Assembly (NCBI GenBank): GCA_049287305.1
Contig: JBAQFO010000014.1
Span: 128,453-192,452 of the forward strand
Direction of reading: 5' to 3'
DNA: 64,000 bases
Source of the DNA: Minisyncoccia bacterium
GTDB taxonomy: Bacteria; Patescibacteriota; Minisyncoccia; Phycocordibacterales; UBA9973
This document shows, piece after piece, positions 8,168 to 27,816 of the stretch. The notes beneath the pieces were generated by a model. That model ran no database searches and had not been told where the DNA came from. It saw nothing but the letters and a program-made list of their open reading frames with translations. The position numbers and the translations under genes are program-made. The number at the start of each line of letters is the position of its first letter. Positions within the stretch are counted from its first letter, which is position 1.

Positions 8168-8173
8168 AATTCA

Positions 8174-9673
8174 TTATTTGTTTTTGTAGTTAGGGGCGGG
8201 ACTTACCATGAAGATGTCATGGACATGGCTTTCATCGAGACCCGCGCGAGTAATTGTGTAAAAAGAGGAGTTTCGAAGTTTTTGTATGTTTTCCGCGCCC
8301 AAGTATCCCATTCCGGCTCGAAGCCCCCCGACATATTGATGTATAACGTCCGACAGAGCGCCTTTGTATGATACATGTCCAGAAACCCCTTCTGGGACGA
8401 GTTTCGTCAGGTCGTATTGGTCCTCCTGGAAATATCTGTCCTTCGAGCCTCTTTGCATTGCGCCCAAAGAACCCATGCCTCTATATTTTTTAAATTTTTG
8501 GTCATTCATGTTTATGGTGTCGCCAGGCGCTTCGTCTGTTCCCGCGAACATGCTTCCGGCCATAACGACATCCGCTCCGAATACCAAGGCTTTTACCACA
8601 TCTCCCGAATGCTTGATACCGCCATCAGCTATGACTGGAATATTTAATTTTTTACACACCTCGTAGACGGAAGAAACCGCGGAAAGTTGCGGCACGCCCA
8701 CGCCGGACACAATTCTCGTGGTGCAAATAGAGCCAGGGCCTATTCCAACCTTAATCGCGCTGGCTCCCGCTTTCGTGAGCGCTAGGGCGGCACTACCGGT
8801 AGCCACATTACCCGCGATGATATCCAATTTAGGAAAAGCTTTTCGGATTTTTTTTACAGCATCCAATACTCCCTTAGAATGTCCATGTGCCGTATCTACG
8901 CATACGACATCAACTCCTGCCTTCACCAAAGCTTCTACTTGAACCAAGACATCCGCTCCGGCTCCAACGGCTGCGCCGACACACAAACGACCAAGAGAAT
9001 CTTTTGTGGCGTTTGGGTATTCTTTTGATTTTGCTATATCGCGATAGGTAATCATTCCAACCAGTTTGTTGTTTTTATCCACCAATGGGAGTTTTTCTAT
9101 CCCGTATTGGCTGAACAGATTGTTGGCTTCCTCAATGTTGGTTTTTGGACCGCCGGTAATAAGTTTAGTGGTCATTATATTTTTTATAGGAGTTGATTCG
9201 TCTTTTTGAAAACGCATGTCGCGATTGGTGACAATTCCCACAAGTGAGCCGTCTTCTTCCACCACCGGGAATCCTCCGAAGTGGTATTTTTTCTGGATAT
9301 TAAAAACGTCGCCGACAGTGGCGGTAACGGGAATAGTTATCGGGTCTATGATTCGTCCTGATTCGTATCGCTTTACCCGCTCTACTTCGTGCGCTTGGTC
9401 TATGATGCCTAAGTTTTTGTGTATTATGCCTATTCCTCCCAATTCCGCTATAGCTATGGCCATCTTGGACTCCGTAACGGTATCCATTGCCGCGGACATA
9501 AATGGAATTTGAAGGCTGATGTTTTTTGTGAGTTTGGTTTTAGTAACAACATTTTTCGGAAGGACTTCGCTGTAATTCGGCACCAAAAGCACATCGTCAA
9601 AAGTAAGTCCTTGCCCTAAATCTTTTGGGGCGGAGTTCTTGCTTGTTTTTGAAGAAGTGTTTTTGTTGGGCAT
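8174..9673 (-). CDS. guaB: IMP dehydrogenase with CBS pair
   Basis: [12 protein letters not shown]-terminus, a CBS-domain insert, and the catalytic-loop region GSICTTR. Confidence 0.9.
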
Positions 9674-9691
9674 ATATTTTTTATACCATAT

Positions 9692-10108
9692 TTACACTAT
9701 TTTTGCTTGTTTTGTTTTTCGGTTCGCGAAGTAGGCATCCAATGAAAAAGAATCCGCTCCGTAGAGAAACGTGGAAATCGCTCCCATAGCCAAGCCAAAG
9801 TCCCTAACCCCAACGCCGTTGTAGCCAACAACGTAAGTAATGAGCAGTAAATGTAAAGCCGAGAGCAATCCTATTATTGTGGTAAAAAATCCCAGAAGCA
9901 AGAGAGTTCCTATAACTATTTCCATGGAACCGTTTATTATTACGAGAGTGCTTGCCTCAAATCCCGAAAGAGATGTTGCCCAGGATGGAATTAGCCCTAC
10001 CCAAGCGTTAGTATCTATAAGCTGTTGGACTCCAAACCACAAAATTACAAGCGCTACGCCTGTTCTGACAATGGTTGGAGCAATAACTTTCATTTTTTCT
10101 GATGACAT
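9692..10108 (-). CDS. DoxX-family membrane protein
   Basis: Four predicted TM helices and a DoxX-like profile. Confidence 0.45.
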   Translation of the reverse strand: MSSEKMKVIAPTIVRTGVALVILWFGVQQLIDTNAWVGLIPSWATSLSGFEASTLVIINGSMEIVIGTLLLLGFFTTIIGLLSALHLLLITYVVGYNGVGVRDFGLAMGAISTFLYGADSFSLDAYFANRKTKQAKIV

Positions 10109-10166
10109 ATCTAATTTTTTTTTAATTAATAATGTTTCAGCATTTTAGCATCCTGCGGGCGTGTTT

Positions 10167-10475
10167 TCAAGAATACTTTCTTACGCCTTCTTTTTTTAAA
10201 AGCGCAAGTTTGGTTTTCACTCCACCCTTGCCAGAATATCCGCCAAGGGCGCCATCGCTTCTTACAACCCTATGGCATGGGATTTTAGGAGCTAACGGGT
10301 TGGCTCCTACGGCATTTGCTACCGCCCGCACCGCGCTAGGCTTGCCAATGCGTCTGGCGAGTTCTTTGTAAGTTACCGTCTCCCCTTTCTTGATGCGCAA
10401 AAGCGCTCCCCATACTTTCTTTTGAAAAACAGTGCCTTTTAACTTTTCAATATCTGATTTATTAATTTTTTTCAT
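10167..10475 (-). CDS. ogt: Methylated-DNA-protein-cysteine methyltransferase, single-domain form
   Basis: TVTYKELA...IPCHRVV active-site motif. Confidence 0.75.
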   Translation of the reverse strand: MKKINKSDIEKLKGTVFQKKVWGALLRIKKGETVTYKELARRIGKPSAVRAVANAVGANPLAPKIPCHRVVRSDGALGGYSGKGGVKTKLALLKKEGVRKYS

Positions 10476-10586
10476 GGTTATTTATTTTTCAACATAGGCA
10501 TAAGTCTATTTTATCACAGCCATAAATTCCGGCAGTGTTTCCATTGGAATTACCTTATAGCGCTGCCACTCATGCAAAATGTTTTA

Positions 10587-11219
10587 TTATTCTACCAAAA
10601 CTGCGCTCACGACAAGACGCTCATCATGAGTCCGATATTCTTTGAGCCACGCCCCAGTGCATGTGATCAACCTCAAGATTTTTCCTTCTCTTATTCTGAA
10701 TATTTCCGGCACATTTTCGTTAAAATCATAAATTTCTGAGCCTGTAACCCTAAAATGTAGTCTTTTATTTTCGTCTGTGGTTATATAAATATCGTCGCCT
10801 TCTTTTAGATTTGAAAGCTTACTAAACACTGCCGGCAAGGATAAGCCATTATCCACATGCCCTGCTATTACCGCGCTTCCTATATTTCCGGGAACTGTCC
10901 CGTATTTATACCAGCCAACATTTCGAAAACTCCTCGGCGTAGCCATGTTTCCCTTTGCAGTTATTCCGACCTTTTGTATATCTGCATTAACGTTAATTTT
11001 TGGTATAGACAGAGCTATCGGATAACCTTTTGGAACTTTTTTTACCGCTTCTTCTTGCAAGCTCGCTGATTCCGAAGTTTCTAAAGGAATACCTATACTC
11101 ACTAAAGGCAATGGGATTTCGTCTGAAGGCGCATAAAAAACCGCATTTGAAAGGACCACCGCAAAAATGATAAGGGCTATGGTGACAACTATTATTAAGT
11201 GGTTTTTCTTGAGTTTCAT
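10587..11219 (-). CDS. Sortase (transpeptidase)
   Basis: N-terminal TM segment. IAGHVDNG (His) and LITCTGAW (TLxTC Cys) motifs. Confidence 0.75.
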   Translation of the reverse strand: MKLKKNHLIIVVTIALIIFAVVLSNAVFYAPSDEIPLPLVSIGIPLETSESASLQEEAVKKVPKGYPIALSIPKINVNADIQKVGITAKGNMATPRSFRNVGWYKYGTVPGNIGSAVIAGHVDNGLSLPAVFSKLSNLKEGDDIYITTDENKRLHFRVTGSEIYDFNENVPEIFRIREGKILRLITCTGAWLKEYRTHDERLVVSAVLVE

Positions 11220-11294
11220 TATTTATTAAAAATAATATCACCACAGAGGAAAAGACGGAAGCCTTATAAATGACAACCGTCTTTTCACTCGTGA

Positions 11295-11774
11295 TTAATA
11301 CTTTCGGGAAGGTTGGTTTAGGTAAATAAATCCAAGAAAAGCTATTAACCCTGAAACAGCCAGGAGGAGAATGTTGTTAAGCGCATTGCCTCCGTATCCT
11401 GTTGTCGGCAAACCCGGAGAATACACTGTCCCGCCGCCTGGCCCAAAGGTAGCTCCGTTACATACCCAGCCATTTATGATGCTGTATCCGTATATGGATG
11501 AACATCCATTCAGATAAGGTATAGCGACTGGTCCGCCGCTGCATGGCGACCCACTTACAACACTATATCCTAATGCGGAAGAACATCCGGGCAAGAATCC
11601 CATGTAGGCAGTCGAATTGCCATTACAAGAGTTTCCAGTAGTTACACTGTAGCCAAGACCGGAGGCACAGCCTGAAGGAAAGGAAGCAGTCTGAGCACTC
11701 GCGCTTGGTGCGCCCATGAGGCCAAAAACACCCAAAACAAACGCTAAGGATAGAATCAAAGAATAAATTTTCAC
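11295..11774 (-). CDS. LPXTG-anchored surface protein with three Cys-pair repeats
   Basis: Signal peptide. Three ~24-aa repeats of form GC-SxLGYS...G..C-G. C-terminal LPTTG, then a hydrophobic stretch, then an RKY tail. Confidence 0.7.
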   Translation of the reverse strand: MKIYSLILSLAFVLGVFGLMGAPSASAQTASFPSGCASGLGYSVTTGNSCNGNSTAYMGFLPGCSSALGYSVVSGSPCSGGPVAIPYLNGCSSIYGYSIINGWVCNGATFGPGGGTVYSPGLPTTGYGGNALNNILLLAVSGLIAFLGFIYLNQPSRKY

Positions 11775-11879
11775 TTTATTTTATAAGGCTAATAATAATT
11801 AAACAACGAATGGAGCCAACTTCGACTATTGTTGATTTCCATTTACTATATAAGACGATGTTGACCTTATTTTATTACA

Positions 11880-12584
11880 TTAATTTTCTTCCTCTTCGTC
11901 AATCCCGCTTTCTCCCCGAGCTCTTTCAAGCACAGACTCCAGGGCGTCTTTAGTCGAATCGCTCTCATATGAGTTCTCTTCTTTTTTTATTTGTTCCCTT
12001 ATCTTCTCTATTTTTTCTGAGTGTCTCTGAAGCTTTGACTCGAGTTCTGTTTCCAGAAATTCTTTCTCATAATTTTCTTTGCGCAGTTCGGCTTTTTTAT
12101 TTTTTATTTCTCTTATATTTTCATCAAAATCACCGAGGTTTTTCTGGATATCTTTCTCTAGTTTCTTGGTATTTTTTTTATTGAGTCTTCCTTTTTCTGC
12201 TAGTTTTTCAAATTCGTCTACCCTCCTTTCTATTTTTCTAGAATTATCTTTAGCTTTGCTTTCAGCGCTTCTGTGAAAAACAGCGGGGATTTTTTCAACG
12301 ACATTTGTTTTTACGCCGTAAAGCAAGTCTCCCGGCAGAGTGTCCAGGGAGGCAAAAGCAGTCGCGCTAGTGAGGGACAATATCAGTCCAGCCAGAATAC
12401 CAACCTTAACGTATCTGCTCTCTAGTAAAAAAGAAAATCTGAAGAAAGGACTAGGAGTTGAATATTTAAGCTTGGTATCAGAGCTTTCCTTTTTTATAGA
12501 AGTGGAGATACGCTCAAATAGACTCCTTTTTTCGGAATCCGATAGTGTGATTTCTTTTAATTTTTTAAATTCCTTCATTTTCAT
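11880..12584 (-). CDS. Putative anti-sigma factor / DUF5667-like single-pass membrane protein
   Basis: Sits immediately downstream of the ECF sigma gene. Has one TM helix and a K/E-rich coiled-coil ectodomain. The arrangement is common in Firmicutes and CPR. Confidence 0.45.
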   Translation of the reverse strand: MKMKEFKKLKEITLSDSEKRSLFERISTSIKKESSDTKLKYSTPSPFFRFSFLLESRYVKVGILAGLILSLTSATAFASLDTLPGDLLYGVKTNVVEKIPAVFHRSAESKAKDNSRKIERRVDEFEKLAEKGRLNKKNTKKLEKDIQKNLGDFDENIREIKNKKAELRKENYEKEFLETELESKLQRHSEKIEKIREQIKKEENSYESDSTKDALESVLERARGESGIDEEEEN

Positions 12585-12594
12585 TGTTTTATTT

Positions 12595-13110
12595 TTAGGC
12601 GTGAAGTTTTGATTTCAAGATACGCAAGCCTCTGTTGATTCGAACCGAAATAGTGTTGGCTGATTCTCCCAGAATAACGGCGATTTCTTTAGGAGTCAAT
12701 TCCTCAACAAATCGTAGATATATCGCTTCTCTGTATATGGGCTCCAGGCTGGCAATTTTTTCCTTCGCCATCTTGGCTTCAAGTAAAACATCTACGCCGA
12801 CAACATTTCCGTCAAACATATCCAGATACAGCTCTTTGTCCTCTGAATTTTCCCCGGGGAAGCTTTGTAGCGGCAAACTCTTCTTTTTCCTATACCAATC
12901 TATCACGAGATGTCTGGCGATTCGGTAAAGCAGGGCGCGTGGCTCATCAACTTTTTCTTTTTGCAGAGTCTGCCAGAAACGCAAATAGGTATCTGCCACT
13001 ATATCCATCGCCTGCTCTTTATCCGACACTCTATATAAGACAAAGCGGAAAAGGCCATCTGTGTTGTCGGCGTAGGCTTTTTCAAAGATTTTTTCTATGG
13101 ATAACTTCAT
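12595..13110 (-). CDS. RNA polymerase sigma factor, ECF subfamily
   Basis: Region 2 (RHLVIDWYRKK) and region 4 helix-turn-helix (LTPKEIAVILGESANTISVRINRG). Confidence 0.8.
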   Translation of the reverse strand: MKLSIEKIFEKAYADNTDGLFRFVLYRVSDKEQAMDIVADTYLRFWQTLQKEKVDEPRALLYRIARHLVIDWYRKKKSLPLQSFPGENSEDKELYLDMFDGNVVGVDVLLEAKMAKEKIASLEPIYREAIYLRFVEELTPKEIAVILGESANTISVRINRGLRILKSKLHA

Positions 13111-13296
13111 ACATGCAGACGATTAACGGCTCGGATACTTACTTATACTAGCATCAAATTTGTAATTATCCATTAATTTCAATCTAGGTAGTCAAATACG
13201 ATTTTGTCAGTAAGTATTTCTACCTTCTTTCGTCTGTGCTTTTAGGAGGATAACCTTTCCATCTTCCTAAGCATTATTAGTTAACATAAAAATATT

Positions 13297-14118
13297 ATGA
13301 AAAACAAGCAAAGTATCGCAACAGGTTTTGTTTTGTTAGCCTTATTGGGGGTGGGTTTAATTTCAACCCCGGCAATGGCGGACAATGAAAACAAAGGAAG
13401 TTCCAAAGGTTTTCTTAATGCCCAAGCTTCTTTAAAAGCCGATGCATTTATGAAAGCTGAAAATGCAACGGGTGTGGTTTTGGGTTCAAATAACTCGCTT
13501 AGAGTTATGGGGGCAAAAGTTACATCAGTTTCCGGAAGCGATATAAGCGCTACGGTTCCTTTCGGGAATAGTTCTCTTAACTTTGTTGTAAAGACAGATG
13601 CAGAGACTAAGTTAAACGGTAAAGTATTATCAGGCGCGTCCGCCCTAGCCGGGTTAAAAGCCGGAGACAAAATTAGCTTTGGCGGAACAATAACCTCTTC
13701 AACAAGCTCGTCAATAGTCGTTGACGGAGACCATGTAGTAAGTCAAGCTCTTTACGGAGGAATAAAATTAGAAGATAAAACTTCTTTCCAAGGTGAAGTG
13801 AAAGCGGTGAACTCTACCGACAGTTACTTTACTCTTAAACTTAAGAGTGGAGTAAGTGTTAAAGTCCTGATTTCAAGCTCAACTGTTATTACTTTAGATG
13901 GCGCAACTAAGCCCCTTTCTTCTCTGGAAGAAGGAGATGAAGTAAGACTAACAGGTGAATTGAATTCTGACGGAAGCGTGATTACTGCTTCCAAGGTCTC
14001 AGCTGAAAGCGAAGATAGTGACGACGAAGAAGACGATAACGATAATGACGACAAGGATGGAAGAAAAGAATTCAGAGGCGGTTTTTGGGGTAAAATCCAA
14101 AATTGGTTCTGGAGATAA
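13297..14118 (+). CDS. Secreted protein with acidic D/E-rich C-terminus
   Basis: Signal peptide MKNKQSIATGFVLLALLGVGLISTPAMA. Tail DDEEDDNDNDDKD...FWGKIQNWFWR. Confidence 0.5.
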   Translation: MKNKQSIATGFVLLALLGVGLISTPAMADNENKGSSKGFLNAQASLKADAFMKAENATGVVLGSNNSLRVMGAKVTSVSGSDISATVPFGNSSLNFVVKTDAETKLNGKVLSGASALAGLKAGDKISFGGTITSSTSSSIVVDGDHVVSQALYGGIKLEDKTSFQGEVKAVNSTDSYFTLKLKSGVSVKVLISSSTVITLDGATKPLSSLEEGDEVRLTGELNSDGSVITASKVSAESEDSDDEEDDNDNDDKDGRKEFRGGFWGKIQNWFWR

Positions 14119-14138
14119 AAATTAAATAAATTTTACCT

Positions 14139-14170
14139 AAAAAAGAGCCCTTAAAAGGGCTCTTTTTCTT
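14139..14170. terminator. Bidirectional rho-independent terminator between convergent genes
   Basis: AAAAAGAGCCCTT-AAA-AGGGCTCTTTTTCTT. Confidence 0.7.
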
Positions 14171-14179
14171 GAGGTAATA

Positions 14180-14464
14180 TTATAATTTTTCCTCAGCTTT
14201 GAAAAGTTCCATAATACTGCCCACAGCTTGACCGATTGCTAGGTCGTCGGCTTTCATATCCAATGATTTCTCGGTTGTGGCCTTTAGATAATTAAAAACC
14301 ATTTCATGAGAAATATCTCCTTTTTCATACATTGAAAAAATTTCGGCAGCGTAAGCATCATATTCCCTACGAGCATCAGGCATATCCGACACGCCTAAAG
14401 GGTCCCAATCTTTCAGTAAAATTGCGCTTATTTCTTTTATTAAAATTTCATTTTCGGGAGGCAT
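14180..14464 (-). CDS. Hypothetical protein
   Basis: 94-aa ORF with a protein-like composition. No recognisable motif. Confidence 0.35.
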   Translation of the reverse strand: MPPENEILIKEISAILLKDWDPLGVSDMPDARREYDAYAAEIFSMYEKGDISHEMVFNYLKATTEKSLDMKADDLAIGQAVGSIMELFKAEEKL

Positions 14465-14483
14465 GCTCGGATTATATCATATA

Positions 14484-15335
14484 TTAGAGATTTGTCGGGT
14501 CAGTCCTAACGTGCAGGTTTTCGTTCAGTCCGTTAATCTTCTCCATCTCGTCTTCCGATAGTTCAAAGTCAAATATCCCGATGTTCTCTTCTATGCGCTC
14601 CTTGTGGGTAGATTTAGGTATGGGGATGAGTCTATGCTGCACACTCCAACGAATTAAAACCTGGGCGTTACTTTTCCCATGCTTTTTTGCTATTTCGCTT
14701 ATTAAAATATTTCGCGAAATGTCACCACTTGCCAAAGGCGAATGCGCTTGGAGGCGGATGTTGTTCGCCTGGCAGTATTCAAGTAATTCTTTTTGAAATA
14801 AAAATGGATGAAATTCTACCTGGTCAACCGCCGGAGGCACCGTGGCATAGCCCTTCATTTCTTTAAGGTGGGCAATTGTATAATTTGAAACCCCAATGGC
14901 TTTGGCTTTCCCTGATTTGTAAATTTCTTCCATAGCGCGCCACGTCTCCTCTCTTTTATTTATGCTGACTTTCCGTTCCGGGTCTGCTGTCGGCCAGTGG
15001 ATTAAATATAAATCCACATACGCAAAACCAAGCTTCTCAAGCGACGTGTCTATGGCTTTAAGCGTGCTCTCGTAGCCCTGGTCTGAGTTGCCCAATTTTG
15101 TTGTTATAAATAATTCTTCTCTAGGAATCCCAGACTCTTTTATGGCTTTCCCCACCCCTTTTTCGTTGTCGTAAAGTTTTGCGGTGTCTATCAATCTGTA
15201 TCCGGCTTCTATTGCCCACTTTACTTCGTTAATAACAGGGTCCCCTTCTTCGGTGCGAAAAGTTCCAATGCCGATAATTGGCATAGTTGAGCCGTTGTTC
15301 AGAGTAACTCTTGATTTTAAATTTAAATTATCCAT
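14484..15335 (-). CDS. Aldo/keto reductase (2,5-diketo-D-gluconate reductase-like)
   Basis: MPIIGIGTF...LIDTAKLYDNEKGVG...ITTKL and IHWP motifs. Confidence 0.8.
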   Translation of the reverse strand: MDNLNLKSRVTLNNGSTMPIIGIGTFRTEEGDPVINEVKWAIEAGYRLIDTAKLYDNEKGVGKAIKESGIPREELFITTKLGNSDQGYESTLKAIDTSLEKLGFAYVDLYLIHWPTADPERKVSINKREETWRAMEEIYKSGKAKAIGVSNYTIAHLKEMKGYATVPPAVDQVEFHPFLFQKELLEYCQANNIRLQAHSPLASGDISRNILISEIAKKHGKSNAQVLIRWSVQHRLIPIPKSTHKERIEENIGIFDFELSEDEMEKINGLNENLHVRTDPTNL

Positions 15336-15442
15336 ATCTATTCAAAATTCATCAATTTTATTATATCAAATGTAGCGAAATTAAAAAATAATGAGGACGG
15401 GTTTATCAAAAAAACAAACTTTAACTATAAAAGAAAAGTCAC

Positions 15443-15489
15443 CCGGCACAGAAGTGTCAGGGACTCTTCTCTGCTACGGGTGACGGGAT
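15443..15489 (-). terminator. Long GC hairpin plus T-run terminator after the TrxR-like gene
   Basis: GTCACCCG...CGGGTGAC perfect 8-bp inverted repeat (extended to ~19 bp with mismatches), followed by TTTTCTTTT on the minus strand. Confidence 0.6.
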
Positions 15490-15490
15490 G

Positions 15491-16537
15491 CTACTTGAGG
15501 GCGAGATAACCGTGAATGTTCTGCACGGCCATTGCGCCTTCTGCGACGGCCGAGGCGATTCGCTTGATGGAGCCGTGGCGGACATCGCCAGCGGCGAAGA
15601 CTCCTGGCATTGAAGTCTCCATAAAGAAAGGTGGACGAGGCAGCTGAGTCAGACGCCAGTGACCGGTGGGAACGTCGTTACCAGTGTAAATCTGACCTCT
15701 CTCATCCAACGCGATGCCGTCCGGAAGCCACTTGGTTTTCGCTACGCTTCCGATGGAGATGAACATCTCCTTGGCGTTCACGACTTCATTCCCCGTCGGC
15801 GAGGTGATCACCACCGACTCAAGGCGGGGGTCGCCGTGAGCCTCTTTGACTTGGGAGTTGTAGTGCATGACGATGTTTGATGCCGCCTTGATGCGCTCGA
15901 TGAGGTATGCCGACATCGTGGAGGAAAGGGCCTCGTTTCTCACCACCATGTGAACCCGGCACCCTTTCTGCTTACAGAGAAAGATGACGGCCTGCCCTGC
16001 GGAGTTTGCTCCGCCGACCACAACCACATCCCCCTCGTATGACTCATCGACTTTCGGAGAGCCATACTTCACTCCCCGTCCGATGAGCCTGGCGACACCT
16101 TCCACTTCAAGAGGACGGTAAGACACGCCGAGCGCGAGAATGACGGTGCGAGTTGGGATGATGGTCCCATCTTCCGTAGTTACGAGAAGCTTGCCGTCCG
16201 ACTGCTGAACGTTGCTGACTCGTGCTGGCACCATGAAGACGGTGCCAAACTTCTCGCACTGAGAAATCGCTCGGTCTGCCAGCTCCTTACCAGTGACTCC
16301 CGCCGGGAAACCGAGAAAGTTCTCGATTGAAGTTGATTCTGCCGCCTGTCCGCCACAACCATCCGTGCTGCGTTCCACTATCAGGGTCGTCAGCCCCTCC
16401 GATTCGGCAGTGATAGCTGCCGACATTCCTGCCAGTGAGAATCTCATTCTGCTAAAGACTGCGGACAAAGGCCGGTATTTAATAAAATGCTTACTGACAT
16501 AAGAGAAGGAAAATTCGATGGAATACTTGTCTGGCAT
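15491..16537 (-). pseudogene. GC-rich TrxR-like flavoprotein oxidoreductase (FNR/TrxR fold, no CxxC); N-terminus replaced and GxGxxG degraded
   Basis: GDVRHGSIKRIASAVAEGAMA C-terminal FAD motif and VVVVGGANSAGQ NAD motif. The N-terminal dinucleotide motif reads FSLAGMSAA instead of GxGPAG. The first ~30 codons of the tracked ORF lie in AT-rich sequence with no homology. The gene body is markedly GC-rich. Confidence 0.5.
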
Positions 16538-17566
16538 CCAGATCGCCTTGCTCGAAATGCCGGAGACCTAGGAGCGATCGTAGACCTGTTAGATCAAAAG
16601 AGATTAATAGAGATAAGAACGTATAGTCAGCACTTCACAAATAATCCGAATGAGAAGTTTCTACTAATGATTCTTGGTAGTCAGGCAAAACTAGAGAATG
16701 ATAATAAAAGTATAAATGTAAAACGTGGATTAAAAACACAAGTCGAAAATGGATTATGGCCCAGTGTTGCTCCCACTGGGTATTTAAATGCAAAAAATAA
16801 AGATCAGAAATGTCATGTATTTGTTGACCCAGACAGAGCACCAGTCATGAAAGAGATCTTTGTAAAGGTGGGACACCAAGGATGGAGTGGTAGAAAAGTT
16901 TTTAGATGGCTCAAAGATATAAAATTTGTAACACGCACAGGCAAACCACTAACTCTTAGTAATATTTATGTAATCCTGAATAACCACTTCTACTATGGAA
17001 GCTTTGAGTACCCAAAGAAAAGTGGTCGATGGTTTCAAGGTAAGCACATACCGCTAATAACAAAAGATTTATACGATGATGTTCAGAAACAATTACACTT
17101 ACAAATAAAGGCTCATGGAAGAAATAAGGAATTTGCATTTACGCGAATGCTAACCTGCGGGGCATGTGAGTCTGGGGTCAGTGCGCAAGAAAAGTATAAA
17201 ACTCTAAAAGATGGTTCGGTAAATAAATACATTTATTATGGATGTACTAGAGCCAGAGATATAAACTGTAAAGAAGGATATATTGAAGAGAAAGTATTAA
17301 TAGACCAACTACTTGGGATAGTAGATAAAATAGATTTGGACAAATCAGGGATAAAGAAAAAGCTTGAAGTAGAAATTGAACGACATAAAAAATTCCATTC
17401 AGGAATAATGGGTAAACCAAAAGAAGAATATTCAGCCAAAGATGCTGACATAAGAAATTATGCAAAATATTTACTTACCGAGGGATCAGTATTTGAAAAA
17501 AGAGATTTGCTAGGCTGTTTAAAAAGTAAAATAAACTTAAAAAATAAAGTAGTTTCAATAAGTTAA
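16487..17566 (+). pseudogene. Large serine recombinase, 5'-truncated (catalytic Ser region missing)
   Basis: Starts inside the resolvase domain (GKFDGILVWHPDRLARNAGDL), about 70 aa short of the catalytic Ser. The recombinase domain and zinc ribbon (CGACESG...YYGCTRAR) are intact. A TAA sits immediately upstream in frame. Confidence 0.65.
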
Positions 17567-19017
17567 TTTACCTCCGGCCAAAAAGTATTTATTACATCAT
17601 CACCTAAAAATTCAGCAAGTTCTCCTGATGGTTTATTTTCACCAATACATTTTGCTACTCTTAATGTCCAAGGGATGTTTTTAGGACTCAAGATTTGAGA
17701 GAGTTGTTGAATTACATCTTTCAAATCATCATCTTTACGGTTCCAAGAATCGCAAGAATCCAAAAGTGTTTGTTTGGCGCCATATTTATTACTCTCAGAT
17801 TTAATTTTTAGTTTTGCTTCATCCCAATTATTTAACCCTAGAGATGAAAGAACTTCGTTAGAAAGAAAAAGGTTTTCAGATTCTCGACACGCAAGTTTGA
17901 TAAATTTTATATTTAACTGCTGATTGCTCTCATCTGCTATTGGTAGTGATTGATCGCCATCCAAAAGAGCATACCCAACTGGATTAGATTGATCTGACCT
18001 TAGGCTAGTAAATAACTTCTCTAAAGATTTTTGATAGTTTTTTACCTCTTCAGACCCACTACAAGGGATAACTGCAAGGGGAACTTTATGATATCTTGGT
18101 ATTTGGCTCCAAATTTTATTATCATCATCTCCCTCTACTAGTAATAGTGGTGCACCAAAAAGTGGACCCATCAAAGCATGCCCCCCTAAACAAGTAGAAA
18201 GTTCTTGTAACGCTTTATTGAATTTTATTGCCTTCTGTTCTTTTATTGAATTATTTAAATAAATAACACTAGTTTTTTCTTCACCATGATAACCAAGAGC
18301 AGAGAGTAACGTAGTACTATGTGTCGCAATTACTATCTGAACTTTATATTTATCAAGTAATTTAACTAAGAAATTTGCTAAGTGTTGTTGCAAGTCTGGA
18401 TGCAAGTGTGTATCAGGTTCATCAATAAGCAAAACTCTACTGGTTTGATTTTCTAATTCCCACATAGCACAAATAGTAAGCAGATCTATTGCTAGAGTTA
18501 AAATTTCTGCTTCCCCTGTACTTAAAGCATTAACACTGGATACAATATCATCATTATGTATTCTCTTTAGTTCAAAGGGAGGATTTTGACCTGTTATAGA
18601 AAATTGGAAATCGGGTAATAATATTTGTAGAGTATCTTCAATATCTTGAACATTAACAGGGCTGGCCGCTCCTCGCGAGGTCACATTACCAATTTTAATA
18701 AACAATGCTTGAATACGAGAAATTGATTCTTGACGATAAGTAGGAGAAAGATTATTTCTCCCTCTTCCAGCTCTGCTAGGAGCGGTCAGTTGTTCCTGCA
18801 TAATCCCAACATCATGAGTAATATCACCAGCTCTTTCTGGAGAAGTGTAATGATAAGTACTTTGATCAGTATCTCTAAGGAGTCTGAGTAAGCGACTTTT
18901 TCCAGATCCATTTTTACCGAACAAAACAGTAATCTCATTTAAATCCTTGAGTTCCCATTGTTCTGCACCAAGATATCCTGGTCTTACAATATTTAAATCT
19001 GAGAAATATTTTGCCAT
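17563..19017 (-). CDS. OLD-family ATP-dependent endonuclease (ABC ATPase + Toprim)
   Basis: Walker A GKNGSGKS, ABC signature LSTGEAEIL, Walker B VLLIDEPDTHLHP, H-loop ATHS. C-terminal Toprim has LLLVEGDDDNKIW (Glu) and LLDGDQS (DxD). Confidence 0.75.
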   Translation of the reverse strand: MAKYFSDLNIVRPGYLGAEQWELKDLNEITVLFGKNGSGKSRLLRLLRDTDQSTYHYTSPERAGDITHDVGIMQEQLTAPSRAGRGRNNLSPTYRQESISRIQALFIKIGNVTSRGAASPVNVQDIEDTLQILLPDFQFSITGQNPPFELKRIHNDDIVSSVNALSTGEAEILTLAIDLLTICAMWELENQTSRVLLIDEPDTHLHPDLQQHLANFLVKLLDKYKVQIVIATHSTTLLSALGYHGEEKTSVIYLNNSIKEQKAIKFNKALQELSTCLGGHALMGPLFGAPLLLVEGDDDNKIWSQIPRYHKVPLAVIPCSGSEEVKNYQKSLEKLFTSLRSDQSNPVGYALLDGDQSLPIADESNQQLNIKFIKLACRESENLFLSNEVLSSLGLNNWDEAKLKIKSESNKYGAKQTLLDSCDSWNRKDDDLKDVIQQLSQILSPKNIPWTLRVAKCIGENKPSGELAEFLGDDVINTFWPEVN

Positions 19018-19058
19018 AATTTTAACCCGTCTAGGTCCTTCGATACTAAACTAAACTG

Positions 19059-19129
19059 CTGGGAGACTAGGAATCGAACCTAGATTAAAGGCTTCAAAGG
19101 CCTCTGTCCTACCGTTAGACGATCTCCCA
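19059..19129 (-). tRNA. tRNA-Gln(UUG)
   Basis: Manual fold of TGGGAGA TC GTCT AACGGTA GGAC A GAGGC CTTTGAA GCCTT TAAT CTAGG TTCGATT CCTAG TCTCCCA G. U1:A72 is typical of bacterial tRNA-Gln. Anticodon UUG. Confidence 0.8.
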
Positions 19130-19133
19130 ATGT

Positions 19134-19370
19134 TTAAAACTTTAACAACAATTCTTTCTTACCCTTGGCCGTTTTGTAATATTTCTCTTTTCTGAAAGCT
19201 TCATACCTATCATCGCATGCTTCAGAATACAGAATTTCAAAAGGGATGCGGGATTTGGTGGATTTCACTTTGCCTGAATTATGATAACTTAGACGTTGCC
19301 CTAAATCATGCGTACACCCTACGTATAGATTACCATCCTTTTTGCTTTTCAAAACATAGACAAAGTGCAT
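19134..19370 (-). CDS. GIY-YIG nuclease superfamily small protein (UPF0213-like)
   Basis: MHFVYVLKSKKDGNLYVGCTHDLGQRLSYHN is a GIY-YIG core. 78 aa. Confidence 0.7.
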   Translation of the reverse strand: MHFVYVLKSKKDGNLYVGCTHDLGQRLSYHNSGKVKSTKSRIPFEILYSEACDDRYEAFRKEKYYKTAKGKKELLLKF

Positions 19371-19375
19371 ATGTT

Positions 19376-19447
19376 TTTGTCCTACCGTTAGCCTCGCCCA
19401 TAGGCTGGAGCCTGATGGCTACGGCCGAGGGACGATCTCCCAATATT
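19376..19447 (-). repeat. Partial duplicate of the tRNA-Gln 5' end (acceptor + D-arm, 25 nt) interrupted by a 40-nt GC-rich hairpin
   Basis: TGGGAGATCGT + CCCTCGGCCGTAGCCATCAGGCTCCAGCCTATGGGCGAGG + CTAACGGTAGGACA. It matches the tRNA at 19105-19131 on either side of the insert. Confidence 0.6.
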
Positions 19448-24639: not shown

Positions 24640-26856
24640 ATGAAACTTTTAATTGTTGAGTCACCGTCGAAGGCCAAAACAATCGAGAAATATCTTGAGG
24701 GCGCTTTTACTGTGCGGGCGTCAGTAGGGCACATCCGTGACCTTCCGAAATCAAATAAGCAAGCAATAGATATTGAGGCGGGCTTTGTTCCACATTACGA
24801 AATTTCTAAAGGCAAGGAAAAAGTTGTTCATGAGTTACAAAGCTTAGCGAAAAAAGCGACTGAAATTCTACTGGCGACAGACCCCGACCGTGAAGGAGAA
24901 GCTATTGCTTGGCACATAGAAGAATTATTGAAAGCTGACAAGAAAGTAAAAGCTCCAATAGAAAGAGTTGCTTTCCACGAAATAACCAAAGAAGCCGTGG
25001 AAGAAGCGCTGCTTCATCCACGAAAAATAGACACCGCCCTCCGGAAAGCCCAAGAAGCCCGCAGGGTGCTGGACAGGCTTGTCGGCTACGATTTGTCAGG
25101 GTTAATTTGGAAAAAGGTTAGATACGGTCTTTCCGCGGGGCGCGTGCAGTCCCCTGCTCTTCGCATAATAATGGAGCGGGAACGGGAGATTCGAGCCTTT
25201 GTTCCTGAAAAATATTGGAAAATTTTAGGACTATTTGATACCGCCAAAAAAGACAAGCTCACCCTTGAATGCAGTGAAGAGCCGAGAGATGAGAAATTGG
25301 TTGAGAAAATATTAACAGAAGGTAAAAAGGGCGTTTGGGTGGTGAAAGACGTGAAAGAAAGCGAACAGAAACGCAGTCCCCGCGCGCCATTTACGACTTC
25401 CACTTTGCAGCAAACCGCAAGCTCCCGCTTAGGCTACTCGCCTTCCCGCACAATGCAGATTGCACAGAAACTTTACGAGGCAGGGCACATTACTTATATG
25501 CGAACAGACAGCACTAACTTATCCGCCACCGCTCAAGCTCAAATTGTTTCATTTGTGAAAAAAGAGTTTGGCACGGAATATGCCGAAGGAAGAATTTATA
25601 AAACAAAATCAAAAAATGCCCAGGAAGCTCACGAAGCTATCCGTCCTACACATATAGAAAATCTTCACTCAGGACACGACGACTACGACAAGCTTTATCG
25701 CCTGATATGGGAGCGAGCTGTCTCTTCTCAAATGACGGACGCGAAACTTTTGAAAACAAAAATAATCGCGACCATAGAGGGACACGAAAACCTGCCTCCG
25801 TTCGGCGCCGTAGGGTCTCGGCTTCTTTTCCCCGGCTGGCTAAAAGTAGACAGCGGAGCTCGCGGAGACGACGTGGAGCTACCACTATGCGCAAAGGGAG
25901 AAAAATTAAAATTACTGAATTTAATAAGTGAAGAGAAGTTTACCGAACCGCCAGGCAGATACAGCGAAGCCGGATTAGTGAAAGAGCTTGAGCAAAGAGG
26001 CATTGGCCGTCCTTCTACTTATGCGTCAATTATGCGAACCATAGAAGACCGTGGATACGTAAAAAAAGAAGGTAAAACATTGTTCCCAACGGATGTCGGT
26101 GAAGTCGTGTCGGATTTCCTGGAAGCGCATTTTGCGAATTACATTTCCGATACTTTTACCGCTGAGATGGAAGACCAGCTTGATGAAATTTCCAGAGGTG
26201 AACGCGAATACGAAAAAACCTTGAAAGATTTTTATGGTCCATTTCTAAAAGAAGTAAAGTTAAAAGAGAAACTTGAAAAAGCCACCAACTTAGGAGATGC
26301 TCCCGAAAATATTAAATGTCCCAAATGCGGAAGCCCGATGATAATCAAACTGTCGCGCGGAGGGAAATTTTATTCTTGTTCAAAATTCCCTGACTGCGAC
26401 GGAGCACTGATGCTGGACGGCACCGAATTAAAAGGCCCCGAAGAAACGGGCGAAATGTGTCCAAACTGTGGTGAAAAGAAAGGTAAGTCCGGCGGAGGCA
26501 AGCTCGTAATACGAACTAGGCGTGACGGCGGAGGAACATTTATTTCTTGTTCCCGATATCCTAAATGTAAATTTATTAAGCAAGACGAAGCGGAGCTGGC
26601 TAGAAAAAGAACCGGAGTGATGTGTCCAACGTGTAAAGTCGGAGATATTTCTGAACGACGTGGAAGATTTGGAATTTTTTATTCTTGTTCAAATTATCCT
26701 GATTGCAAATTTGCAATCAAAGCAAAACCAACCGGAAATATATGTAAAGAGTGCGGAAGCTTAATGATGGAAGGCACAAAAACGATACCGGAAAGATGTT
26801 CTAATAAAGCCTGCAAAATGCACAACCCACACAAAATTCCTAAAATTGAAGCATAA
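24640..26856 (+). CDS. topA: DNA topoisomerase I with C-terminal zinc ribbons
   Basis: Toprim MKLLIVESPSKAKTIEKYL, active-site region GHITYMRTDST, and three C4 ribbons (CPKCGS..., CPNCG..., CPTCK...). Confidence 0.9.
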   Translation: MKLLIVESPSKAKTIEKYLEGAFTVRASVGHIRDLPKSNKQAIDIEAGFVPHYEISKGKEKVVHELQSLAKKATEILLATDPDREGEAIAWHIEELLKADKKVKAPIERVAFHEITKEAVEEALLHPRKIDTALRKAQEARRVLDRLVGYDLSGLIWKKVRYGLSAGRVQSPALRIIMEREREIRAFVPEKYWKILGLFDTAKKDKLTLECSEEPRDEKLVEKILTEGKKGVWVVKDVKESEQKRSPRAPFTTSTLQQTASSRLGYSPSRTMQIAQKLYEAGHITYMRTDSTNLSATAQAQIVSFVKKEFGTEYAEGRIYKTKSKNAQEAHEAIRPTHIENLHSGHDDYDKLYRLIWERAVSSQMTDAKLLKTKIIATIEGHENLPPFGAVGSRLLFPGWLKVDSGARGDDVELPLCAKGEKLKLLNLISEEKFTEPPGRYSEAGLVKELEQRGIGRPSTYASIMRTIEDRGYVKKEGKTLFPTDVGEVVSDFLEAHFANYISDTFTAEMEDQLDEISRGEREYEKTLKDFYGPFLKEVKLKEKLEKATNLGDAPENIKCPKCGSPMIIKLSRGGKFYSCSKFPDCDGALMLDGTELKGPEETGEMCPNCGEKKGKSGGGKLVIRTRRDGGGTFISCSRYPKCKFIKQDEAELARKRTGVMCPTCKVGDISERRGRFGIFYSCSNYPDCKFAIKAKPTGNICKECGSLMMEGTKTIPERCSNKACKMHNPHKIPKIEA

Positions 26857-26861
26857 AAAAT

Positions 26862-26912
26862 AGCCGGCACTCACATTACTCCTTTCGGATGTGGCCGGCT
26901 ACTCGAGAGTTG
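26862..26912. terminator. Bidirectional terminator
   Basis: TAGCCGGC(AC)...GCCGGCTA 8-bp perfect stem with inner CACAT/ATGTG, followed by a T-run on the minus strand. Confidence 0.55.
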
Positions 26913-26991
26913 GAAGGTCTCTCACCTGATAGTGCTAGAAATGTCTAGCGGCATTGCCTGGTTTTAGTTCGCGCCAGGCTTGCGGGTGCGT

Positions 26992-27816
26992 TTATGGAAT
27001 CGGAGTAGTTGTCACACCCCGCGAAGGATTGTAGCGATACAGATACGTATCACATCTTCCTCCACCGTCCACGATGGTGACGAGGTTGTCTCCTTCGTAG
27101 ATGATGCCCTCCCCGTTATCAGGGTTGTAGAGCTCAACCTCCATTCCCTCAGGCGTTCGAGTGATGGATTCGTCCGAGAGGGCATAAAAGTTGACGAGAA
27201 CCCGAGCATCACCACTCTCTGTGATGACCTTCATGCGGTTGCTCACTTGCACTTCATTGATTCCGAAAGAAGGCGAGCCGTAGAAGTTCATGTCAGAGGA
27301 CAGGGTCACCATCTCCTCTCTCTCGGGGTCGAATACTCGAAGGAAAAGCGTCGGCGCTCCCTCCAGAGTCAGCATCGGTGGGATTTCGCCATACCAGAAC
27401 GAGATGAACCAGTCTCCCTCTTCTTCCACGGAGAAGGCGCCGGTATTGAAACGTTTCCCGGTCGGGTATTCAAGAATCGGGACTACCACCGAGAATCGGT
27501 GCAGGTGGCCTACGAAGGAAAGCACCTTGTAGGCGCTGTCCTTGACGATAGCGCCGTCGAACTCGGGGTCAGCTGAGGGATTGTGATTCGTCGACGCGAC
27601 GTTGCGTCGTGAACCTTCCTCACCCATGATGCGATTGATGAGCGCGTGGTCGTGAACGAGCCGGGTTCCGCTGCCGGGCTTGCCGATTTCGGACGTGGTG
27701 ACCTTTCTGACGCCGGTCGGGAGCTTGCGCTCCTGGCCCGACACGACGAAGGTCGCGAACGAGAAAACGACGGTCATGATGACGAGGAGCGCAGTGATGA
27801 GGTTACGGAGTTTCAT
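26992..27816 (-). CDS. Hypothetical secreted/membrane-anchored protein, GC-rich gene
   Basis: N-terminal hydrophobic anchor LITALLVIMTVVFSFATFVVS. 274 aa with no recognisable domain. 60-nt samples at 27001-27120 counted 50-57% GC. Confidence 0.5.
   Translation of the reverse strand: MKLRNLITALLVIMTVVFSFATFVVSGQERKLPTGVRKVTTSEIGKPGSGTRLVHDHALINRIMGEEGSRRNVASTNHNPSADPEFDGAIVKDSAYKVLSFVGHLHRFSVVVPILEYPTGKRFNTGAFSVEEEGDWFISFWYGEIPPMLTLEGAPTLFLRVFDPEREEMVTLSSDMNFYGSPSFGINEVQVSNRMKVITESGDARVLVNFYALSDESITRTPEGMEVELYNPDNGEGIIYEGDNLVTIVDGGGRCDTYLYRYNPSRGVTTTPIP

Follow-up and report, generated by a model that had tools for sequence, protein, structure and literature searches.

PARIS is known both as a pair of genes and as single-gene fusions, and P4 satellites carry it at a hotspot next to their integrase (Rousset et al. 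2022, PMC9122126). Its AriB component is a tRNA-cleaving Toprim nuclease, which is released from the AriA scaffold upon sensing phage proteins (Burman et al. 2024, PMC11464382; PMC12409363). Class 1 OLD enzymes are single-chain DNA nucleases (review PMC10568477). Here we describe a locus that carries a relative of both in a 64,000-nucleotide stretch of a Minisyncoccia bacterium genome (assembly GCA_049287305.1, contig JBAQFO010000014.1, positions 128,453 to 192,452; hereafter, the window), which has a GC content of 42.0%. A prediction made earlier from the letters of the window had placed four elements between an aldo-keto reductase (AKR) gene and dnaX, namely a thioredoxin reductase (TrxR)-like flavoprotein gene, a large serine recombinase gene, an ATPase-Toprim nuclease gene and tRNA-Gln, and had read them as a decayed integrative element that delivered a defence nuclease. 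All four are present at the positions given for them (Table 1), and the general reading is supported by intact versions of the element elsewhere (L004/L005 and L183), by a 20-mer common to the window and L004/L005, and by relatives that are free of the island. We consider it quite probable that positions 15438-19057 are the immobilised remnant of a large-serine-recombinase island at the 3' flank of tRNA-Gln, with an intact PARIS/OLD-type defence cargo.

The nuclease gene is convergent with the recombinase gene, and the stop codons of the two overlap. The Pfam profiles AAA_21 and AAA_15 match the protein with 70.0 and 66.0 bits, respectively (E ~1e-18); the PARIS detection thresholds are 27 bits for AAA_21, 32 bits for AAA_15 and 27 bits for the Toprim-family profile DUF4435 (PMC9122126). 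A match to AAA_15/AAA_21 was found in all 24 family members that we aligned. The top PADLOC profile, in the window protein and in each of the 24 members, is AriAB (PDLC02981), which describes fused PARIS; it scores 97 bits (E=2.8e-28), where the profile is PADLOC's and not DefenseFinder's, and DefenseFinder cut-offs were not applied. The match spans residues 126-397, corresponding to profile positions 269-533 of 694, and AriAB is the sole PADLOC profile to cross the boundary between the ATPase and the Toprim domain. The AriA, PtuA, GajA and Old profiles rank next and match the ATPase part only, with 58.5 bits for GajA and 52.7 bits for Old.

The 24-member alignment includes sequences from Patescibacteria, Gemmatimonadaceae and Pyrinomonadaceae and has a mean column identity of 62%. 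Invariant in it are the Walker A motif GKNGSGKS (K40), the signature S166-x-G-E, the Walker B residues D199/E200 and the H-loop residue H233, the linker CLGGHALMGPLF, and the Toprim motifs LLVEGDD (E295), LLDGD (D353/D355, the DxD pair) and ExEN (E379/E381). The nuclease had been predicted to be intact, and the invariance of the Toprim Glu, DxD and ExE residues bears this out. A protein search returned 993 relatives, the top 120 of which are all about 475-520 residues long and at least 48% identical. A HMMER profile of the C-terminal domain found only 292 proteins among 1.84 billion cluster representatives (50% identity); among the 150 of these that were listed, nearly all full-length proteins have about 470-520 residues and carry the domain at about 255-490.

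The AlphaFold2 model of the nuclease has a mean confidence score (pLDDT) of 87 overall and of 90 for residues 262-484. Foldseek matched the full model to retron Eco8 OLD, PtuA, Thermus scotoductus OLD (TsOLD, 6p74) and GajA, with Eco8 OLD, 6p74 and GajA aligned over 580-650 columns. The isolated C-terminal domain gave only three matches above the noise, one to the Toprim region of XccOLD (6njw; E=2.6e-3, probability 0.97) and two to AriB in the PARIS complex (8ux9_A, 7e-3; 8v46_D). The protein thus has the architecture of a Class 1 OLD enzyme and a fused PARIS protein as its best profile, and it falls short of the individual Pfam thresholds for Toprim families. By these comparisons, it belongs to a distinct, compact subfamily of the OLD/PARIS superfamily. 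The label "OLD-family" of the original prediction is therefore correct at the superfamily level, but the best specific match is fused PARIS and the Toprim domain forms a subfamily of its own.

The likeness to PARIS consists of an AAA_15/AAA_21-type ABC ATPase joined to a Toprim domain, of AriAB as the best PADLOC match, of the conserved Toprim Glu and DxD residues, and of the position of the gene beside the integrase of a putative mobile element at a tRNA-associated site, as in the P4-satellite hotspot. In contrast to PARIS, where AriA has 464 and AriB 306 residues and the fused profile has 694 positions, the window protein is one chain of 484 residues, only part of which is covered by the AriAB match, and DUF4435 stays below its threshold. 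Furthermore, the release of a free AriB dimer is impossible in a fusion such as this one.

Alternatively, the nuclease could be a Class 1 OLD-like, ATP-modulated DNA nickase or 5'-3' exonuclease that acts on phage DNA, with neither tRNA cleavage nor trigger-induced abortive infection. Like P2 Old and TsOLD, it is encoded by one mobile-element-borne gene, without a conserved partner, as one chain that has an ABC ATPase at its N-terminus and a Toprim domain with an acidic metal site at its C-terminus. In addition, the full model matches 6p74 with E=1.7e-7 over 580 columns, the C-terminal domain finds 6njw marginally before AriB, and 5 of the 24 family members weakly match OLD-like_TOPRIM (best E=5e-4). 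However, the AriAB score lies well above those of GajA and Old, DUF4435 is matched at E<=0.01 by 6 of the 24 members, the chain is shorter than the 528-586 residues of Class 1 OLD enzymes, and the helical insertion of the ATPase is reduced, being much shorter in the AlphaFold2 model than the OLD dimerisation domain; profile and fold evidence is silent on the substrate. We regard this alternative as unlikely, although far from negligible. By analogy, we lean towards a PARIS-like mode with tRNA or another RNA as the target over OLD-like DNA cutting, two modes that are not separable by sequence.

The neighbours of the nuclease gene differ in every context that we examined, so that no conserved partner emerges and the nuclease is a single-gene system. 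Unlike Gabija, a Class 2 OLD system in which GajA is accompanied by GajB, the window locus and all homolog loci are without a GajB-type, UvrD/PcrA-like helicase gene beside the nuclease. It likewise differs from retron-associated OLD and from Septu PtuA, since neither a reverse transcriptase gene nor an HNH (PtuB-type) gene adjoins the window nuclease, and Rfam finds no RNA other than the tRNA there.

The recombinase gene has lost its beginning. From the internal ATG at 16487, the Pfam Resolvase match begins at profile position 55 of 145, but homology extends in frame upstream to 16439 (ESHSAKDCGQRPVFNK...), where it is preceded by an in-frame TGA at 16436-38. In comparison with the 447-residue recombinase of L004 the remnant lacks 68 residues, and in comparison with the 443-residue recombinase of L183 it lacks 65, close to the loss of about 70 that had been predicted. 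As also predicted, the catalytic serine is gone: in both comparisons its motif, YARKS[T/S]E, falls within the lost part. The remnant keeps the C-terminal two-thirds of the Resolvase domain, the Recombinase domain (PF07508, E=5e-14) and the Zn-ribbon domain (PF13408, E=4e-5, 24.2 bits, just under the cut-off of 25.3). Its best NCBIfam matches are CcrB, which ranks first, and XisF. From its sequence, we take the gene to be a pseudogene.

The TrxR-like gene, on the opposite strand, is truncated at the same place. Its Pfam Pyr_redox_2 match (E=3e-28) starts at profile position 10, and relative to the full-length homologs P0122-P0129 (323-328 residues) it lacks the first 13 residues (MKNYDLIVVGGGP), so that the start codon and strand beta-1 are lost, along with the first two Gly residues of the GxGxxG motif. 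The closest of these homologs (52-72% identity) begin with MKNYDLIVVGGGPAGMSAAI, and the window sequence is retained from ...AGMSAAI onwards. The motif is thus destroyed, as had been predicted, but the gene is hardly the fragment it was called: it is 96% complete, its remaining ~314 codons are open, and NCBI annotates it as a protein of 311 residues starting at an internal Met. Because neither this protein nor its full-length homologs show a CxxC redox motif in the alignment, and because it scores 180.7 bits against TIGR01292, far below the cut-off of 343, "TrxR-like" is the right level of description.

The TrxR-like homology on the minus strand starts at or before 16432-16435 and the recombinase homology on the plus strand starts at 16439, which is also exactly where a blastn match to L183 begins. 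Alignment to homologs confirms the predicted recombination scar, but places it at 16433-16438, about 5 nt to the left of the range of about 16440-16490 proposed for it. The junction fits a single deletion between divergent genes, as one deletion across the divergent promoter region is enough to explain both 5' truncations.

Intact counterparts of the element were found in two configurations. In L004, and in L005, which equals L004 7804-15446, a tRNA-Ser is followed by the nuclease gene (75% identity to that of the window) and a convergent, intact recombinase gene (57% identity); a gap of 34 nt separates the two genes in L004, where in the window their stops overlap. In L183, a 13-kb Logan contig, the order is tRNA-Gln, the same AGTTTAGTTT as in the window, a Ymh/HEPN protein gene, a gene for a 279-residue protein and an intact recombinase gene, the product of which is 64% identical to the window remnant and nearly identical to it over the first 75 retained residues. 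The Ymh/HEPN cargo matches the PD-Lambda-3_B and Aga_HEPN profiles. DNA homology between the window and L183 ends at 19048 and resumes at the recombinase gene. Cargo is thus exchanged at a constant position, bounded by the tRNA flank on one side and by the recombinase gene, with its 3' end, on the other.

On its tRNA side, the nuclease cassette shares a sequence with L004/L005. The 20-mer TTTAGTATCGAAGGACCTAG has 18 of its 20 positions in common with L004/L005, and the motif TTTAGTATCGA(A/G)GGACC(T/G)AG lies 7-8 nt past the 3' end of both the window tRNA-Gln and the L004 tRNA-Ser, even though the tRNAs and the rest of the spacer differ between the two. The tRNA flank contains …CCCAGCAGTTTAGTTT…. 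The 20-mer occurs nowhere else in 169 loci and is absent after the tRNAs of the nuclease islands L002, L006, L090 and L110. It marks a conserved end of the nuclease cassette or of the element.

The Resolvase, Recombinase and Zn-ribbon architecture of the recombinase is that of SCCmec CcrA/B, of XisF-type elements and of serine-integrase prophages. As in other large-serine-recombinase islands, the recombinase gene lies near one end of the element and the ends carry no long direct repeats. The window differs from such islands in its truncated catalytic domain and in its insertion at the 3' flank of a tRNA, a type of site more often associated with tyrosine integrases. No att-like direct repeat of the 3' end or middle of tRNA-Gln was found across the whole window, only a copy of its 5' fragment upstream; for a serine recombinase, a tRNA-derived direct repeat at the distal end is not expected.

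Two observations on the contexts of these counterparts should be added. A few kilobases from the intact recombinase element, L004 (14535-15503) and L005 (6732-7643) carry bAvd and reverse transcriptase genes resembling a diversity-generating retroelement, and a 126-nt repeat with 88% identity may be their template/variable repeat pair. The tRNA-Gln 3' flank beside the GIY-YIG cassette described below, which in the window carries the AriAB-like gene, has HEPN_AbiU2 in L170 (4063-4812) and Ymh/HEPN in L183 (4202-4993), with an AbiEii gene about 6 kb further on in L183 (10729-12682), so that this flank looks like a recurrent defence hotspot.

Elsewhere, the nuclease gene keeps varied company. It follows a GmrSD-type restriction gene in L002/L003 and a restriction-modification system of the helix-turn-helix/EcoRV/Dam type in L006-L008, and both of these islands lie downstream of tRNA-Ala. 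All Patescibacterial cases are in fact downstream of a tRNA, whereas the distant homologs outside Patescibacteria have no tRNA within 6 kb. In 12 of 13 loci, the GC content of the nuclease gene is below that of its flanks.

The stretch from 15.4 to 19.1 kb is accessory. Reading along the minus strand, the gene order at the locus is ftsQ-like, dus, dnaX and tRNA-Gln, with the island starting at the 3' flank of the tRNA. A DnaX scan of species-representative genomes yielded eight Paceibacteria/Parcubacteria relatives (DnaX identity 50-76%). All eight keep the ftsQ-dus-dnaX block, with the exception of an inverted dus in L015, and all have tRNA-Gln, in five of them directly after dnaX; in none do the 8 kb on either side of dnaX, or the shorter stretch left by a contig end, contain a homolog of the nuclease, recombinase or TrxR-like gene. 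The island is therefore not a piece of core synteny, in line with the original prediction. The core status that this prediction gave to the AKR gene is not supported: the gene has no syntenic counterpart at the dnaX locus of the nearest relatives. In the closest relative, L009 (DnaX 76%), 3.7 kb of unrelated genes separate dnaX from the IMP dehydrogenase (IMPDH) and purA genes, which are found at 6752-9673 in the window, and the window interval of 9.7-19.4 kb is for this reason variable as a whole. The variable region downstream of tRNA-Gln thus measures about 9.8 kb and not 4 kb. Its part between IMPDH and the island (9673-15335) has no counterpart at the same locus in L009 or L016 and contains genes for a sortase, an extracytoplasmic function (ECF) sigma factor with a DUF5667 protein, a DUF5666 secreted protein, a 94-residue open reading frame (ORF) and the AKR.

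The same data bear on the idea that the ATPase-Toprim protein is a housekeeping factor of DNA repair or recombination in Patescibacteria, akin to RecF, SbcC or OLD. Its ABC ATPase is indeed of the SMC/RecF type, with a Pfam SMC_N match in all 24 members, and conservation across several lineages is strong. However, a housekeeping gene would hardly be so patchy as to be missing, in each of the eight relatives, from the locus of dnaX and tRNA-Gln (some 8 kb on both sides of dnaX), to have restriction-modification, GmrSD and recombinase genes as neighbours, to be poorer in GC than its flanks in nearly every locus, and to number so few clusters among the representatives searched. We find this explanation very unlikely.

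The TrxR-like gene is compositionally foreign. With 57.6% GC it forms the highest 1-kb GC peak of the window (z ~+3.8), and its GC content at third codon positions is 0.61, as compared to 0.20-0.26 in the nuclease and recombinase genes and 0.42-0.46 in dnaX and the AKR gene. A GC-rich inverted repeat followed by a T-run, which by its sequence looks like the terminator of the gene, forms the left edge of the GC-rich block, where the GC content steps up at about 15400-15440. A scan of the region for promoters and terminators gave counts not above those in shuffled sequence. In L169 (1602-2573), a 72% identical TrxR-like homolog is likewise GC-rich relative to its flanks (55% versus 43%), and another homolog, P0126, sits near a gene for a 79-residue GIY-YIG protein in a further contig.

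This contrast in composition (34.8% GC for the nuclease and recombinase genes) is also what a mosaic would show, in which the nuclease cassette, the recombinase and the TrxR-like gene arrived separately at the tRNA-Gln flank and the deletion joined unrelated neighbours. The TrxR-like gene is not beside the recombinase in L004 or L183, and its relatives occupy ordinary chromosomal contexts; the cassette end matches L004 while the recombinase is nearer to that of L183, which implies module shuffling; and the entire 9.7-19.4 kb interval differs from L009. On the other hand, the convergent nuclease-recombinase pair is kept in two lineages, and for these two genes a mosaic is largely compatible with a recombinase island, the main difference being whether the TrxR-like gene, which may or may not have belonged to the recombinase element, was a member. 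We consider separate arrivals possible but somewhat doubtful.

A sharp GC step and two truncated genes that abut could, in principle, also result from a chimeric assembly of this metagenome-assembled genome (MAG). However, a Logan contig from SRA run SRR28062879 (L001) equals window positions 15432..19086 with 100% identity over 3655 bp and crosses both junctions, which argues against a chimera, although this contig may or may not share the reads of the MAG. Moreover, the close homolog P0126, for which neither DNA nor a taxon is available, lies among genes typical of small genomes, and the block in L169 has the same GC-rich character. A chimera is extremely improbable. Both nuclease-carrying Logan contigs, L001 and L005, stop within the adjacent tRNA, 27-29 nt from its 3' end, and the left end of L001 is the left edge of the GC-rich block. 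These ends suggest that the assembly graph branches there, as it would if the samples contained alternative alleles or repeats at the boundaries of the islands.

Several findings weigh against the interpretation of the locus as the remnant of a recombinase island with a PARIS/OLD-type cargo. DUF4435 (PF14491) matches residues 292-390 with only 17.3 bits (E=0.0042), and OLD-like_TOPRIM (PF20469) does not match the window protein at E<=0.01. The fold matches of the C-terminal domain are weak, with template modelling (TM) scores of 0.26-0.36, and its comparison with PDB sequences found nothing relevant. The fused AriAB profile exceeds the protein in length by about 200 residues, and the subfamily of the protein is known from sequence and predicted structure only. 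The nuclease is paired with the recombinase in just 2 of about 9 Patescibacterial contexts, and the TrxR-like gene is possibly unrelated to the element. As neither att repeats nor a second element end were identified, recombinase-mediated insertion is suggested by the architecture only. Finally, an IMG/VR scan gave no confirmed relative of the nuclease, leaving a phage origin of the gene unsupported.

If the locus is nevertheless such a remnant, its history may have been as follows. The element would originally have had the order of its intact relatives, i.e. tRNA, a short conserved end, a swappable defence cargo and a convergent recombinase gene. A later deletion would have fused recombinase codon ~66-69 head to head with codon ~14 of the neighbouring divergent TrxR-like gene, at the cost of the catalytic serine and of the promoter and start codon of each gene. 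Excision would then be impossible for the element, and its cargo would be fixed in place. By analogy with PARIS and OLD, the ABC ATPase domain may keep the Toprim nuclease inactive and sense a phage-derived trigger, whereupon an ATP-dependent rearrangement would free the E295/D353xD355/E379xE381 metal site to cut nucleic acid. The outcome would be abortive infection or destruction of phage DNA.

Table 1. Coordinates of the features of the locus, in window numbering unless another locus is named.
Feature	Position	Strand	Basis
GC-rich inverted repeat with T-run, putative terminator	15438..15484 (arms 15438-15445 / 15477-15484)	-	read from sequence
TrxR-like FAD/NAD(P) flavoprotein gene, 5'-truncated	ORF 15491..16537; homologous part 15491..16435	-	Pfam, NCBIfam, alignment
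Putative head-to-head deletion junction	16433..16438	.	edges of TrxR-like and recombinase homology
Large serine recombinase remnant	homology 16439..17566; longest ORF 16487..17566 (internal ATG)	+	Pfam, NCBIfam, homolog alignment
ABC ATPase + Toprim gene, intact, 484 aa, single chain	17563..19017	-	Pfam, PADLOC, AF2, Foldseek
20-mer TTTAGTATCGAAGGACCTAG	19031..19050	-	18/20 common with L004/L005
tRNA-Gln(UUG), intact	19058..19129	-	ARAGORN; Rfam 64.8 bits
78-aa stand-alone GIY-YIG nuclease gene	19134..19370	-	PF01541 E=7e-17, 61.9 bits (cut-off 22.6)
Displaced copy of tRNA-Gln nt 1-26	19378..19442 (nt 1-12, 19431-19442; nt 13-26, 19378-19391)	-	sequence comparison
39-nt GC-rich imperfect palindrome CCTCGGCCGTAGCC...GCCTATGGGCGAGG interrupting the tRNA fragment	19392-19430	-	sequence
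GIY-YIG/palindrome/tRNA composite, window	19134-19442	-	
Composite, L170	2925-3315		
Composite, L172 (= L183)	2930-3312		
Composite, L173	3017-3393		
Composite, L177	2437-2811		
Composite, L179	2446-2822		
AKR gene	14484..15335		

The elements between the AKR gene and dnaX are not limited to the four predicted, because a GIY-YIG gene and a split tRNA copy between tRNA-Gln and dnaX had been missed. From the dnaX stop codon (19446-48), the minus strand reads TAT, tRNA nt 1-12, the palindrome, tRNA nt 13-26, 7 nt, the GIY-YIG ORF, 4 nt and the intact tRNA. The junction AATAT/TGGGAG after dnaX is identical to the "empty" dnaX-tRNA-Gln junction in L016, so that the upstream piece is the displaced native 5' end and the intact tRNA uses a second copy. 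The GIY-YIG protein has 123 homologs, mostly in Patescibacteria, and in all six loci encoding the GIY-YIG homologs compared (61-80% identity) the composite lies directly upstream of tRNA-Gln, the anticodon of which is UUG in three loci and CUG in the other three.

Comparison of the six composites shows which of their parts vary. The GIY-YIG ORF encodes 78-105 residues. The tRNA fragment matches the acceptor sequence of the local tRNA (TGCGGGA in L177 and L179, TGGGAGA elsewhere) and has acquired point changes, as a remnant would. The arms of the palindrome hardly differ between the loci, whereas the GIY-YIG/tRNA-Gln segment of the window is only ~76% identical to that of L183. In L179, the palindrome has the opposite orientation and interrupts the tRNA at position 5/6 rather than 12/13, and in L173 it is a 25-nt short form, but all forms fold into the same stem with a G-G mismatch. 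The cassette is absent from the dnaX-tRNA-Gln junction of L016, L014 and L010, and in L009, where tRNA-Gln has the inverted orientation, none of the DNA within 8 kb of dnaX encodes a GIY-YIG homolog. The cassette is thus polymorphic for presence and absence at a conserved target among relatives.

Two other origins of the split copy were discarded. Random decay as the source of the upstream piece is ruled out by its recurrence in six loci. A group I intron or an intron-containing tRNA was rejected because Rfam reports only the intact tRNA, both at the gathering threshold and at E<=1, and because the interval is too short for a ribozyme and an ORF.

Related sequences occur nearby in other genomes. 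In L011 (9036-9206), directly after dnaX, an independent duplicate of tRNA-Gln nt 1-30, which has one mismatch, precedes the intact gene by about 100 nt and is accompanied by neither a GIY-YIG ORF nor a palindrome; it may be a deletion derivative of the cassette. L009 (8612-8638) has a 27-nt copy of the palindrome (CCTCGGCCATAGACCTACGGGCGAGG) in frame within dnaX, relative to the window (~19865), which suggests that the palindrome may also invade protein-coding genes by itself. At exactly the dnaX codon affected in L009, L016 and L170 have insertions of 30 nt that are likewise GC-rich and palindromic but of a different sequence. These insertions recall the palindromic elements inserted in coding genes of Rickettsia.

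Known parallels are mitochondrial mobile endonuclease ORFs (mORFs), which supply a substitute for the end of their target gene while the native end persists as a remnant (Allomyces atp6, Glomus atp6/atp9/cox2/nad3; PMC3630166), and SegB of phage T4, a GIY-YIG homing endonuclease that is free-standing and lies in a cluster of tRNA genes (PMC2330249). As in mORFs, a free-standing GIY-YIG ORF lies inside a gene, a duplicated terminal part keeps the gene whole and the native part is left as a remnant; distribution among close relatives is patchy, and the association with a tRNA gene is as in SegB. However, the target here is a bacterial tRNA gene, the duplicated part is the 5' end (13-26 nt), the protein is small (78-105 residues) with no DNA-binding domain that could be recognised, the displaced fragment is split by a GC-rich palindrome that is strictly conserved, and the sequence of the intact tRNA copy is unaltered. 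No description of such a bacterial tRNA-Gln cassette was found in the literature searched, which is not proof of novelty. Tentatively, and with doubts that we think substantial, we propose that the GIY-YIG gene, the palindrome and the duplicated tRNA-Gln 5' end form an undescribed minimal mobile cassette of Patescibacteria that homes into tRNA-Gln genes (UUG and CUG) and rebuilds the tRNA with a 5' end of its own, as a bacterial equivalent of the mORFs aimed at tRNA genes, with the palindrome as a recognition, immunity or mobilisation site.

Outside the locus, the second-highest GC peak of the window lies at 26750-27800 (~53-54% over 1 kb), where two ORFs overlap (26980..27576 on the plus strand and 26992..27816 on the minus strand).

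As a decayed integrative island with a defence nuclease, the island is an ordinary kind of object, and the GIY-YIG/palindrome/tRNA-Gln composite is the more unusual feature of the two. Little has been charted of the defence repertoire of Patescibacteria, whose genomes are tiny. A compact (~480 residues), single-chain relative of PARIS and OLD circulates in Patescibacteria, Gemmatimonadaceae and Pyrinomonadaceae; it appears to travel on serine-recombinase elements as well as in islands flanking tRNAs, and the position between tRNA and recombinase gene stays fixed while the cargo in it changes. As a natural minimal ATPase-gated Toprim effector, it could help to sort out the essentials of the PARIS and OLD mechanisms, for instance since a fusion cannot release its nuclease subunit. 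Should the composite prove mobile, it would represent a new type of minute selfish element, one whose target is an essential RNA gene that is not destroyed in the process.

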